A stretch of DNA of 61,418 bases from Bacilli bacterium (GCA_017432645.1 JAFRIU010000021.1:1-61418); one strand, 5' to 3'; counted from the stretch's first letter, positions 37,878-40,693 are shown. Made by a program: numbers and translations. Notes: generated by a model not told the origin, from the letters alone.

Positions 37878-38060
37878 AAAAAAACTAGTCATTTGACTAG
37901 TTAATTAAAAAACTGGGACCATGATTTGACGTGTAGACGAAAAATCAACATAAATTTACGAAATTGAGTTTGACTCAATTACTTGAGTATAATATACTAT
38001 TTAGAAAAATAAAAGTCTAATAAAATATGACAAAAACGTGTATGTTCGATTGATTTTTTA
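37878..38060 (+). repeat. Island repeat copy A (long form)
   Basis: Hairpin aactagtc-attt-gactagtt. Core ctgggaccatgatttgacgtgtagacgaaaaatcaacataaatttacgaaattgag-tttga-ctcaatt. Tail atatgacaaaaacgtgtatgttcgattgattttt. Alignable with copy D. Confidence 0.7.
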
Positions 38061-38391
38061 TTAGGGATAATGTTATATTGCGATTAGGAACATTTAGTTG
38101 TTGAGTGTCTACCTCCAATCCAACAAAGAGAGGAGGTTTGGGAGAATGAAAAAAACGTGAATACAACATTAAGTTGCTTCGCTATATATCACTCATTTTA
38201 CTACTCTTAACCTTACTGGTTTTAGTAATAAAAAAATGACACTCATTCGTTAGAATAGTGTCTTAATCAATGAAAATTGGTAGACATTCAATTCGGAAAA
38301 ACTGAATGTTCCCATTTTTATTTTATGCAAGATTTCTTGCTAGATACATAATAACATAAAAAGGAACTTTTTTCAAGTTCCTTTTCTTTTT

Positions 38392-38460
38392 AAACTGGGG
38401 CATCAATTTAACGTGTATACGAAAATTGGCACAAATCAATAAATTGAGAACTTGAATAAA
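38392..38460 (+). repeat. Island repeat copy B (short form)
   Basis: aaactggggcatcaatttaacgtgtatacgaaaattggcacaaatcaataaattgagaac, preceded by the hairpin aggaactt-ttttc-aagttcct. Confidence 0.7.
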
Positions 38461-38525
38461 AAACTTAATTATTTTGATTTATATGGGAAAAAATGTTAGA
38501 ATAGCGCTTAACAAGTTGGTGGAAT

Positions 38526-39074
38526 ATGGAATACTATTATCATGGAACAAATCAAATATATAATAAAGGTTTAGATATTATGATTGATATAATTGAATCT
38601 GGTGGAATAAAAAGTAATAATAAAAGATCAGGACATTCAATCGGATTATATAATGGCGATGATTATATCAGTGTTGGAAAATGGAATAAAGAAGAGAATA
38701 TAGATTTTAGTAGATTTAATGAATCATGTTTTTATGGTTGGATTTTTTGGTGTCCGACGTTTATTATTGATCCTAGCATCAATGCCATACATGCAGAAAG
38801 AATAATTGGACCAGTGAATCCTAATAAAGGAAGATATTCATGTTTTGTAGATGAATATCATGTAAAAGATGAAATAGAATTAGACAAAGTTAGAGGAATA
38901 GCATTACCATTTTCATTAATTATGGATAACAAAGATTACTTATTAAAAACTTTAAAAATACTACAATATGCTAAATTATACAAATGGGATGTATATGAAT
39001 CAGACATGTTTTTATTAAACAGAGTAGATAAACAAGAAACCTATTATGATACAAAGTATAAAAAAAGAAACTAA
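38526..39074 (+). CDS. Hypothetical protein (182 aa), cassette gene
   Basis: Clean ORF with its own TTGATT-17-TAGAAT promoter-like site at 38474-38502. No motif I can name securely (N-terminal YYHGT). Confidence 0.55.
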   Translation: MEYYYHGTNQIYNKGLDIMIDIIESGGIKSNNKRSGHSIGLYNGDDYISVGKWNKEENIDFSRFNESCFYGWIFWCPTFIIDPSINAIHAERIIGPVNPNKGRYSCFVDEYHVKDEIELDKVRGIALPFSLIMDNKDYLLKTLKILQYAKLYKWDVYESDMFLLNRVDKQETYYDTKYKKRN

Positions 39075-39096
39075 TCAATAGTTTCTTTTTTTTATC

Positions 39097-39185
39097 AAAA
39101 TGGGGCCTCAATTTAACGCGTTTGTGAAAAATTTGCCCAATTTACGAACAGATATAACTCAATTACTACTTAAAATATAACATAT
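39097..39185 (+). repeat. Island repeat copy C
   Basis: aaaatggggcctcaatttaacgcgtttgtgaaaaatttgcccaatttacgaacagatataactcaatt, preceded by the hairpin agaaacta-atca-atagtttct. Confidence 0.7.
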
Positions 39186-39236
39186 ATTTTGACAAAAAAA
39201 AATATATTTTCTAGAATATTAGTAGGAGGTTATACT

Positions 39237-40373
39237 ATGAAAAAGTTAGAAGATTATAAGTCGGGGAATTATATAAAAGTTGATGATTATAAACCTTTTA
39301 TTCCAAGTCTAATAAATGTTGATTGGATTTGGAATGATAGTAAGCTAAATACTTTATTATCAAAAGCAAATTTGGAATTAGGAATCTTAGATGGTTATGC
39401 TTCTCAAATACCTAATATTGATATTTTTATACAAATGCACGTAAAAGTTGAAGCAAACAAATCAAGTAGAATAGAAGGTACAAGAACTACTATAGATGAG
39501 GACTTATCTGATATAGTAGATATCAATCCAGAAAGAAGAGATGACTGGCAAGAAGTTAAAAATTATGTTGATGCTGTTAATTATGGCTTTAAAAGAATTA
39601 AAGAAATTCCAATCAGTTCAAGGCTGATAAAAGAATTACATGCAATTTTATTAAAAGGTGTTAGAGGTGAACACAAAAATCCTGGAGAATATAGAAAAAG
39701 TCAAAATTGGATTGGTGGATCAAAACCAAGTAATGCTGTCTATGTTCCTCCAATCCCTTCAGAAATTTATAATTTGATATCTGATTTAGAAAAATTTATA
39801 AATAGTGATAGTATTAATACTCCTGATTTGGTAAAAATTGCAATTATACATTATCAATTTGAATCTATACATCCTTTTCTAGATGGAAATGGAAGAACTG
39901 GAAGAATACTAATTCCACTATATTTAATGGAGAAGAAATTAATTACAAAGCCATATTTTTACATCTCTGATTATATTGAAAAAAATAAAAATGAATACTA
40001 TGATTATTTGACAAAAGTAAGAACTAATAATGATATGATATCTTGGATTAAATTCTTTTTAGAAGCAACTATTGAAACAGCAAAAAATGCAAGAATAAAA
40101 TTTCAAAAAGTTGTAGAATTTACTGCGGAGATGAATAAAGTTGCGTTGACTCTAGGAGTAAGACCAGAAAACGCAATGAAGGTAATTGAAGTGCTATATC
40201 AAGAACCAATAATCAATAGAAAAAAACTTTTAGCTTTAAGTGGATTAAAAGAAACTACACTAAAAACTGTTATTAATTCAATGGTTATGACAGGATTGCT
40301 AACTGAAATAACTGGCTATAGTCGAAATCAAGCATTTGCATTTGAAAGATATATAAATCTATTTAGAGATTAA
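39237..40373 (+). CDS. Fic-family protein (AMPylase-type motif)
   Basis: HPFLDGNGRTGR matches HxFx(D/E)GNGRxxR. N-terminal SSRIEG fits the (S/T)xxxE(G/N) inhibitory motif. Start after AGGAGG. The TTG at 39189 was rejected. Confidence 0.85.
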   Translation: MKKLEDYKSGNYIKVDDYKPFIPSLINVDWIWNDSKLNTLLSKANLELGILDGYASQIPNIDIFIQMHVKVEANKSSRIEGTRTTIDEDLSDIVDINPERRDDWQEVKNYVDAVNYGFKRIKEIPISSRLIKELHAILLKGVRGEHKNPGEYRKSQNWIGGSKPSNAVYVPPIPSEIYNLISDLEKFINSDSINTPDLVKIAIIHYQFESIHPFLDGNGRTGRILIPLYLMEKKLITKPYFYISDYIEKNKNEYYDYLTKVRTNNDMISWIKFFLEATIETAKNARIKFQKVVEFTAEMNKVALTLGVRPENAMKVIEVLYQEPIINRKKLLALSGLKETTLKTVINSMVMTGLLTEITGYSRNQAFAFERYINLFRD

Positions 40374-40379
40374 AATCTT

Positions 40380-40409
40380 GACCTATAATAATTTATAGGT
40401 CGTTTTTTT
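40380..40409 (+). terminator. Terminator after fic
   Basis: gacctataa-taat-ttataggtc followed by a T-run. Confidence 0.7.
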
Positions 40410-40486
40410 ACGAAAAATTGACCTATAAAAGTACTTAAGTCAGAAATTTTAAAAAAATTGACCTATTAGAATATTATAATTCGAAC

Positions 40487-40693
40487 AAAAAAACTAGTCA
40501 CAAGACTAGTTATTAATAAAAAATGTGCCTCAATTTAACGTGTTTACGAAAAATCGGCACAAATCTATGAATTGAGATTTTCTCAATTGCTAAATAGAAT
40601 ATATCATATATTTCGAAAAATGAAAATATTAATTCTTTTAATAAAAAAATGTTGAAAAATATGACAAAACTATGTATGTTCGATTGATTTTTA
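40487..40693 (+). repeat. Island repeat copy D (long form)
   Basis: Hairpin aactagtc-acaa-gactagtt. Core atgtgcctcaatttaacgtgtttacgaaaaatcggcacaaatctatgaattgaga-tt-ttctcaatt. Tail atatgacaaaactatgtatgttcgattgattttt. Confidence 0.7.

Follow-up and report, generated by a model that had tools for sequence, protein, structure and literature searches.

A cassette array behind tRNA-His in a Bacilli genome, with repeats that are probably the end modules of small elements integrating at the tRNA CCA end

The window analysed here, a 61,418-nucleotide contig of an uncultured Bacilli bacterium (GCA_017432645.1, JAFRIU010000021.1:1-61418), holds an array of gene cassettes separated by four copies (A to D, in order of plus-strand coordinate) of a repeated element, all on the side of a tRNA-His gene that lies beyond its 3' end. 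A repeat search of the window placed the four same-strand copies in one family, as an earlier reading made from the sequence alone (the sequence-only reading) had proposed from their alignment. A degenerate 22-nt core pattern matched three copies (0.02 expected by chance), and an nhmmer profile built from all four and run against the whole genome assembly (1.07 Mb, 31% GC) returned exactly these four, at E 1e-15 to 1e-20, with the next-best match at E 0.23, placing all copies at one locus. Read on the minus strand, the informative direction, the order is tRNA-His with its 3' flank (X_0), a thiazole/oxazole-modified microcin (TOMM) operon, a deletion scar, module D with its hairpin, a fic cassette, module C with its hairpin, an open reading frame (ORF) of 182 aa, module B with its flank (X_T), a frameshifted toxin-like unit, module A with its hairpin, and VanY. 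The neighbouring genes were correctly described from the outset: VanY (minus strand), the 182-aa orphan, Fic_N+Fic, the YcaO/dehydrogenase TOMM operon, and then tRNA-His (minus strand) and cotJ.

All four copies belong to one sequence variant (v1) and read on the minus strand; their extents are given from junction to promoter in plus-strand window coordinates. Module A (37914-38000) has a promoter-like site, ATAGTATATT, the leader AGTAATTGAG, a two-hairpin body and the end GGTCCCA, while module B (38396 to about 38450) is truncated, without promoter and 5' hairpin arm, and ends in ATGCCCCA. Module C (39101-39185) combines a diverged body with the canonical end GAGGCCCCA and the minus-strand promoter ATATGTTATATT, and module D (40524-40609) has the promoter TTTTCA-17-TGaTATATT (40626->40598), the leader AGCAATTGAG and the degenerate end GGCACA. 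The hairpin that had been noted before each copy is present in every case. The one at module A (37883-37902; AACTAGTC-N4-GACTAGTT followed by T7) is predicted by a terminator scan to be an intrinsic terminator on the minus strand only (37902-37883), as is the one at module D (40492-40511; terminator 40511-40492), whereas the hairpin at module C (39067-39085, GAAACTAATCAATAGTTTC) is bidirectional. In the flank X_T at module B (38348-38386), a bidirectional hairpin (38359-38386) and a promoter-like site on the minus strand (38376->38348) overlap.

The cassettes between these modules bring plus-strand cargo. Behind module A, a conserved tail with a toxin promoter (TTGATT-18-TGtTATATT; 38023-38079) leads into a type-I-toxin-like module (38083-38322) with an anti-Shine-Dalgarno segment in its 5' untranslated region (5'UTR), a 30-codon hydrophobic ORF (38146-38239), a hairpin and a terminator. 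This segment had been taken to be gene-less; it is a complete small-peptide toxin-like module whose ORF is broken by one extra A, the A-run having seven As and not six (38149-38155), which leaves ATG AAA AAA ACG TGA. Contigs of other samples at the same site lack the extra A. The tail shared by copies A and D, from which the two had been called long forms, is real (38006-38058 and 40640-40692, 81% identity), and at module D it runs into a deletion scar (40640-40712, plus strand) in which a T-run connects the -35 box TTGATT with what is left of the X_T hairpin, its right half (ACAAGTCCTTTT). Comparison with an intact unit in another genome (G028) places the fusion at 40683-40704, which implies that a toxin gene once stood behind module D and has since been deleted. 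The 182-aa orphan ORF (38526-39074, plus strand) matches no Pfam family and is present in other arrays at 85% (L164) and 77% (L114) identity. The fic cassette (39189-40402, plus strand) has its own promoter (TTGACA-17-TAGAAT), a Fic_N+Fic gene (39234-40373) and its own terminator (40379-40402), and the block around it (39058-40627) recurs at 92-97% identity in first position after the tRNA (L091), in third position (L131, L134) and in one further locus (L141).

Across relatives the copies follow one plan, with 57-66 unique copies entering the alignments and 139 unique copies from ruminant-gut metagenome-assembled genomes (MAGs) and metagenomes the module statistics. Each is an end module of ~110 bp composed of an extended -10 promoter, a 69-nt two-hairpin unit, a spacer and a terminator. 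The module starts with TGTG-n-TATATT, a TRTGn extended -10 of the kind typical of Gram-positive promoters, followed ~7 nt further on by AG(C/T)AATTGAG, a short variable block and the near-invariant TTCATAGATTTGTGCCGATTTTTCGTAAACACGTTAAAT(TGA/CAT)GGCCCCA, behind which lie a spacer of 10-14 nt and a hairpin with a T-run. The predicted v1 promoter motif (TRTGn-TATAtT) is present in 104/111 copies and directed toward the junction. The distance from AGYAATTGAG to the final A is exactly 69 nt in 70 of 95 v1 copies, 82 of the 95 end in GGCCCCA and 78 can form the 5' hairpin, and the stem of the T-run hairpin behind the spacer occurs in at least 10 unrelated sequence versions among the aligned copies. 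RNAalifold on 57 v1 copies gave next to no covariation, the body being too conserved to show it. The covariation proposed from copies C and D is one base pair at the foot of a hairpin that is real, imperfect and almost invariant. Only tRNAs passed the gathering threshold of Rfam 15 on the window, and a sensitive Rfam scan of the repeat region gave nothing credible (best sub-threshold matches at E about 1-3). Two further identities for the module body were set aside: descent from a decayed tRNA-His 3' half is unsupported beyond the last 6 nt (local and global alignment, p about 0.05), and RNA-guided targeting finds no complementarity between module bodies and target tRNAs.

The direction of the module promoter bears on an alternative in which the repeat is a plus-strand promoter or operator through which one transcription factor, bound at AATTGAG/CTCAATT, co-regulates the accessory genes. 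Such a role would make use of the TTGACA -35 box at the distal edge of many copies, which serves fic in the window, and of three AATTGAG-type half-sites. The cargo, however, stands in either orientation relative to the module (genes for Hbd, DUF4300 and restriction-modification (RM) systems are co-directional with the tRNA), the TTGACA box decays to TATGACA where no plus-strand gene is next, the AATTGAG arm varies, and the conserved block lies upstream of the plus-strand promoters and not inside them, all of which makes this explanation highly improbable. A promoter shared by the downstream cassettes, as raised in the sequence-only reading, does not agree with the repeat's promoter, which points to the minus strand.

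In the window, the tRNA-His gene (44569->44494, minus strand) ends in ...CGCCCCA followed by TATGAATACAAAATACGATAGCATTAGTTATCGTATTTTTT, and its flank X_0 (44453-44493), a spacer with the hairpin ATACGATAGC..GTTATCGTAT and a T-run, forms with the gene (44453-44569, minus strand) the predicted docking site. The same spacer and hairpin also stand 3' of repeats (...GGCCCCA) in other genomes, and X_0 itself is found 3' of modules in 12 other copies. With the module ending in GGCCCCA and the tRNA in CGCCCCA, the last bases of the tRNA are carried by the module. A tRNA-His gene lies upstream of every repeat, on the same (minus-strand-reading) strand and at a distance of 0.3-7 kb, in 39/39 loci holding both, a count that includes some contigs fetched twice. 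For 29 unique tRNA-His ends and 138 unique repeat ends, the adjoining 60 nt on the 3' side were clustered; 22 of the 29 tRNA-His flanks fell into six clusters in common with repeat flanks, with homology beginning directly after GCCCCA and, in several of the clusters, extending into the next gene (Hbd, DUF4300 or the toxin unit). Shared 3' flanks of tRNA and module are, as far as contig anatomy can indicate, what insertion at a specific site, the CCA end, would leave behind, and a module-free state, tRNA-His|X_H-Hbd, is present in one genome (G012).

These observations argue that the repeats are probably the conserved right-end modules of small integrative elements with the CCA end of tRNA-His as their specific insertion site. 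The attP of a circular element would consist of the module (...GGCCCCA) joined to the element's own left flank X (a spacer of 11 nt and a terminator), and recombination of this site with ...CGCCCCA|X0 at the tRNA gene would give tRNA|X-cargo-module|X0. Repeated insertion and later decay would then stack cassettes, each closed by a module. Applied to the window, the four modules would bound the frameshifted toxin, orphan-gene and fic cassettes, the fourth being that of a deleted toxin cassette now fused to the TOMM operon. The suggestion that the repeats are recombination sites of serially acquired cassettes, the first of several offered from the sequence alone, is thereby supported by the single hypervariable locus, the constant association with tRNA-His, the exchange of flanks and the occurrence of the same cassettes at differing positions.

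The enzyme would be a large serine recombinase, as suggested by association. A phmmer screen of all ORFs of the fetched loci found large serine recombinases exactly in the loci whose tRNA-His is followed by flank X_s, a type never seen after the repeat. Two loci (L042, from G035, and L096) read tRNA-His, X_s, a 93-aa ORF, a 606-aa Resolvase+Recombinase protein (L042 4725-6545), a 437-aa Mob_Pre relaxase, cargo and repeat, a layout that by gene content is that of an integrative mobilizable element (IME) bounded by the tRNA and the repeat; a third (L085) holds a decayed version. Behind the L042 repeat stand X_T and a toxin unit, and the identical arrangement lies directly behind tRNA-His in three other loci (L062, L152, L153), so that the attB reconstructed from L042 exists as a natural pre-insertion site. 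Recombinase homologues at 28-53% identity are encoded by 19 of the 47 genomes of the genus. Of 12 fetched loci with such homologues, 10 are preceded on the same strand, at 0.6-0.8 kb, by a tRNA gene (His, Gly-TCC five times, Gly-GCC/Cys twice, Thr/Leu and Met/Leu). The search for a cognate recombinase, which had been suggested as a check, gave a divided answer: the window genome has no member of this family, while relatives carry a large serine recombinase and Mob_Pre between tRNA-His and the repeat. With no matching recombinase in its genome, the array in the window is probably a fossil or mobilisable only in trans. An unrelated serine recombinase on contig C37 was considered as the cognate enzyme and rejected, there being no tRNA, module-like sequence or GCCCCA-type junction near it.

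An integron-type attC array, a miniature inverted-repeat transposable element (MITE) or a repetitive extragenic palindromic (REP)-like element would also give a repeat-delimited layout, and the core does contain ATTTAAC (= RYYYAAC) and an imperfect palindrome. For attC sites, however, there is no IntI and the only tyrosine recombinases of the genome are two Xer-like proteins encoded elsewhere, the single ATTTAAC has no paired R''/R' box on the same strand, and the cassettes bring their own promoters and terminators; for MITE or REP-like elements, the copies are not dispersed and have neither terminal inverted repeats nor target duplications. Taken together this class of explanation is barely credible, and within it the MITE that had been suggested earlier is excluded by the confinement of the copies to one locus; the dismissal of a clustered regularly interspaced short palindromic repeats (CRISPR) array in the sequence-only reading stands. 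A dif/Xer-like site was also dropped, motif comparison by eye showing no fit and no dedicated tyrosine recombinase being present.

The relaxase of the intact elements points to a further alternative, namely that MOB_V/Mob_Pre relaxases use the module mainly as an origin of transfer (oriT) or as a mimic of one, mobilising cassettes or adjacent DNA or shuffling cassettes by oriT-oriT recombination. A MOB_V oriT has an inverted repeat ~8 nt 5' of a GTGTG/TT nick site that the relaxase recognises. The module sequence TGTG/TTATATTTTA matches the nick region of pMV158, TGTG/TTATACTTTA, at 13/14 positions, a palindrome, CATTTGCAAATG, often lies upstream, and the pMV158 nick sequence is likewise an extended -10 promoter, Pmob1 (PMC5863519). 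Yet an A or G replaces the T after the putative nick in many copies, the upstream palindrome stands outside the conserved block at a spacing of 4-12 nt (the inverted repeats required by MobM in pMV158 being unconserved here), and a better candidate, GTATAGGGAG/TTAGATA, lies upstream of the element's own mob, so that an oriT role fits less well; it would also leave the tRNA-end mimic and the flank swapping unexplained. We consider it very improbable, and the nick site in the module is putative. The better candidate occurs in the region between recombinase and mob of L042 as a pMV158-like nick region beside an 8-bp inverted repeat, and this region is the probable oriT of the element. The same region (L042 6549-6580 and 6700-6760) contains the words CACGTT and TTTCGTAA, which are also found in the module body. 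A further feature of recombinase-bearing loci is an ORF of ~93-103 aa, without a Pfam family, that always stands between the tRNA flank and the serine recombinase (L042 4248-4529, L222 1007-1315, L223 16607-16900) and is a candidate directionality or regulatory factor.

End modules are also found behind a second tRNA gene. Arrays behind tRNA-Gly(TCC) (L051, G008:C9 49.5-52.5 kb, 940-1500, with tRNA-Gly at 2521-2594; L047, G003:C183) carry a second variant (v2) that has the promoter and AGCAATTGAG in common with v1 and an unrelated body, and that ends in ...GTCGCTCCA, compared with a tRNA end of CCGCTCCA. It flanks a toxin unit in G008 and large RM and surface-protein genes in G003, the cargo of these arrays including a 1244-aa methylase/specificity RM fusion and InlB-repeat surface proteins. 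Variants v2 to v5 at tRNA-Gly(TCC) end in (C)GCTCCA, and each of three recombinase-bearing tRNA-Gly elements has one intergenic GCTCCA, which again belongs to an end module. All five variants share one predicted fold plan, an extended -10 and about 61-69 nt in which a linker connects a 5' with a 3' hairpin and a tail of 3-4 nt closes the unit, and in each the tail equals the discriminator base of the target tRNA plus CCA, with spacer and terminator next. This architecture, kept between variants unrelated in sequence, is the real evidence for a structure, as far as folding predictions go. A search of the genus for further variants with an AGYAATTGAG module returned only v1 and v2.

The shared fold plan could also be read as primarily that of a free-standing small RNA (sRNA) gene, whose product of ~69 nt, with a 3' hairpin like a tRNA acceptor and with an NCCA tail, would work in trans as, for example, a decoy or regulator, the arrays then having grown by duplication and homologous recombination. 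Consistent with this are the conserved extended -10, the fixed 69-nt length, the terminator or tRNA gene directly downstream (L075, L090), the two-hairpin and NCCA plan of five sequence-unrelated variants with a discriminator base matching the target tRNA, and the coverage of modules by metatranscriptome contigs, which are unstranded and may contain DNA. An sRNA gene would, however, leave unexplained the swapping of flanks at GCCCCA, the strict place downstream of one tRNA and the recombinase-bearing elements that end in a module, and the terminators are equally well displaced or replacement tRNA terminators. Neither the neighbouring toxin mRNAs (z about 0) nor the tRNA is complementary to the module, no Rfam family matches it and there is no within-variant covariation, which together make the sRNA gene distinctly unlikely; of the structured RNA once suggested for the repeat, a predicted leader is what survives. 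In two MAG contigs (L075 ~6887-7040, L090 ~164-316) a tRNA-Gly(TCC) gene begins 10 nt after the CCCCA of a tRNA-His-type module, in place of the terminator.

For end modules of integrating elements, a leader would have a use in controlling the recombinase. In 4/4 recombinase-bearing elements examined, the predicted leader begins with 16 nt complementary to the 5' arm of a terminator of the same element, the one in X_s between the att junction and the small-ORF/recombinase operon. The cognate leader-terminator duplexes have predicted energies of -17.6, -12.9, -16.0 and -15.0 kcal/mol, against -4.5 to -8.5 kcal/mol for non-cognate pairs, with one exception in which both partners share AATTGAG. 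The two ends of an element adjoin in the excised circle and in no other state. As long as the element is integrated, transcripts running on from the tRNA promoter would be stopped at the terminator, and in the circle the end promoter would make a leader that blocks terminator formation and turns the recombinase on. Recombinase expression that depends on excision through leader anti-termination is a tentative proposal, to which we give somewhat less than an even chance; the module promoter probably serves the recombinase operon of the circular form and not the downstream cassette. A comparable switch has been demonstrated in ICEKp1, an integrative and conjugative element (ICE) in which the tRNA promoter and terminator-like stem-loops act in the integrated state and a promoter at the 3' end acts after excision, and for which a 15-bp 3'-end sequence was proposed to pair with the stem-loop and so lift termination; the same promoter-switch logic was noted for ICEclc (Pcir) and ICEEc1 (PMC13023037). 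The elements described here resemble ICEKp1 and ICEclc in that the recombinase gene lies beside the tRNA behind terminator-like stem-loops and the promoter at the opposite end would drive it after circularisation. They differ in that those are large proteobacterial ICEs with tyrosine integrases and a tested mechanism, whereas here the switch is a prediction for small serine-recombinase IMEs of uncultured Bacilli, and in that the leader here also mimics a tRNA acceptor end.

Several observations weigh against integration at the CCA end as the origin of these arrays. The support throughout is the comparative anatomy of assembled contigs, and the metatranscriptome contigs (Logan) that cover the modules are unstranded and may contain DNA. 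The identity between tRNA and module amounts to 6-7 nt only, a length typical for serine integrases, and the crossover dinucleotide is thus undefined. In the window, the TOMM operon starts right after the scar with no canonical junction, and the two Xer-like tyrosine recombinases (PF00589, contigs C38 and C43) and the serine recombinase of contig C37 are unlinked to the array. The fic block of L091 begins after X_s, so that flank X and cargo are sometimes uncoupled and extra deletions or recombinations must therefore be invoked; arrangements of the type tRNA|X_H-Hbd-module fit only if Hbd is cargo of older date. In all genomes the majority of cassettes are without a recombinase and have left flanks X unlike the X_s of the recombinase-bearing elements, which makes mobilisation in trans hypothetical. 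Lastly, a small tyrosine recombinase (305 aa; disrupted in G035:C79) lies 0.5-1.4 kb from modules, on the tRNA-proximal side, in some contigs (L117 4308-5222; L046/L098/L176 ~5042-5863; L142 1-297).

The element was found in 23 of 47 species of the genus, with 1-4 copies each clustered on one contig. A scan with the core pattern gave 51 stretches in MAGs, all of them ruminant or gut bins of the 'Erysipelotrichaceae/Bacilli' type, 70 in metagenome contigs and none in viral contigs. The locus is syntenic, with an AAA+/zinc-ribbon gene pair on one side and tRNA-His/cotJBC on the other, but hypervariable in what it holds, which differs in nearly every genome; elsewhere the cargo includes NERD with a zinc ribbon, SieB, SMODS (cyclic-oligonucleotide-based antiphage signaling system, CBASS), Fic, RM, HlyIII, toxins and many orphans. 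With the copies at one locus and the content variable among relatives, neither genome-wide scatter nor a conserved cassette order, the two outcomes that the sequence-only reading had held would speak against cassette acquisition, was found. Assemblies of many genomes of the genus very often break at modules (as contig ends) or right after tRNA-His, which is consistent with repeats and strain heterogeneity at the locus in metagenomes. An Hbd-like 3-hydroxyacyl-CoA dehydrogenase gene is the commonest gene directly behind tRNA-His in the genus (flanks L193, L194, L202, L205, L207, L210), and in ~9 species the Hbd stop codon lies 3 nt from the promoter region of a module, so that the Hbd transcript would run through the module.

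By this anatomy the system is probably one of tandemly accreted IMEs and their recombinase-less derivatives (cis-mobilizable elements, CIMEs), a known general kind in an unusual miniature form. It shares with IME/CIME accretion insertion at a tRNA 3' end, stacking, recombinase-less units that keep att sites, and an integrase and relaxase beside the target (PMC5704250). The serine-recombinase IMEs of Firmicutes reviewed there integrate within genes, whereas here a large serine recombinase would act at the tRNA CCA end; the units are also smaller (0.5-4 kb, often a single gene, integron-like) and the repeat is a ~110-bp functional module and not a short att site only. The closest likeness, by analogy, is to the ssrA islands of Dehalococcoides, which are tandem, lie immediately downstream of a small stable-RNA gene, with a serine-recombinase module beside the site, and of which about half lack that module and were proposed to be cis-mobilizable (PMC3146451). 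The islands differ in their target, a tmRNA, their size of ~10-20 kb and their dehalogenase cargo. A repeat-delimited array of accessory and toxin genes at one platform, from which the recombinase may be absent nearby, is also a feature of chromosomal integrons and of clusters of attC sites lacking integron-integrases (CALINs); here, by contrast, IntI, attC R''/R' boxes and Pc/attI are absent, cassettes stand in both orientations and the dock is a tRNA end. We know of no conserved promoter/leader end module described for the Dehalococcoides islands. What is unusual in the arrays is the combination of a predicted serine recombinase at a tRNA CCA end, cassettes that are often single genes, and a ~110-bp module that joins an att half-site to a promoter and a tRNA-acceptor-like leader.

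A stronger version of this account, in which the locus is a working integron-like gene-capture platform and recombinase-less mini-cassettes (toxins, Fic, NERD, SieB, CBASS, RM) are excised and re-inserted in trans at the CCA end of tRNA-His and tRNA-Gly, seems to us unlikely. In such a platform, IMEs, whether resident or visiting, may supply the large serine recombinases that work in trans and are specific for tRNA ends, and the end module may serve as a recombination half-site combined with a leader of ~69 nt that mimics a tRNA acceptor and keeps the recombinase off except in the excised state. Integration at the CCA end would, for its part, explain how the ~1 Mb genome of an uncultured gut bacterium keeps fast-changing toxin, defence and secondary-metabolite genes at one address, and it would link that stock of genes to a concrete enzyme family, the large serine recombinases at tRNA CCA ends. 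The end module is a compact searchable marker for such arrays and leads to a regulatory prediction, anti-termination of the recombinase operon upon excision; to our knowledge, the only elements for which excision-dependent anti-termination has been shown are large proteobacterial ICEs that use tyrosine integrases. Serine integrases specific for tRNA ends and with short att sites could also interest genome engineering.

The toxin-like unit of the window (38023-38386) is the same as that found in tandem in two other genomes (G028, G036), where the repeat recurs every ~505 bp and each unit carries one such module. Its parts are a promoter, a 5'UTR with ACCTCC that pairs with the GGAGGT Shine-Dalgarno (SD) sequence, a 30-codon hydrophobic ORF (example peptides MKKREYNIKLLRYISLILLLLTLLVLVIKK and MKTKTFIIRVLKLISIILFLLIIMIVVIKK), a hairpin and a terminator, and the 5'UTR segment GGAACATT..GTGTCTACC is complementary to the 3' end, GGTAGACAT..AATGTTCC; judged by these predicted parts, the unit is built like the mRNA of a type I toxin. 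No Pfam family matches the peptides. Promoter and terminator scans place the minus-strand promoter-like site in X_T and also call minus-strand terminators, and from this site an antisense RNA overlapping the 3' end of the toxin mRNA, a predicted antitoxin, could be transcribed. The minus-strand RNA of the module itself was also considered as the antitoxin of the 30-aa toxin and the idea was dropped because the predicted RNA lacks complementarity to the toxin mRNAs (RNAduplex against four of them, z about 0) and the toxin unit is also found at many loci that have no repeat. The E. coli long direct repeats (ldr/rdl) are tandem type I toxin-antitoxin loci, and the unit resembles them in its ~500-bp length, its tandem arrangement in G028 and G036, the ~30-aa hydrophobic peptide, the sequestered SD, the pairing of 5' and 3' ends and a convergent antisense promoter; it differs in that the peptide is without a family match, the antitoxin RNA is a prediction and the unit is cargo of a mobile cassette. 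Toxin unit and modules are both present and over-represented in Logan metatranscriptome and metagenome contigs, from which neither strand nor transcript ends can be derived. The unit occurs in 36 of the 47 species, at many loci without the repeat, and an intact second copy lies elsewhere in the window's own genome (C30:12765-13065, minus strand), where it encodes the peptide MRQRIFIIKILQYITIILLLLTMLVIVIKK.

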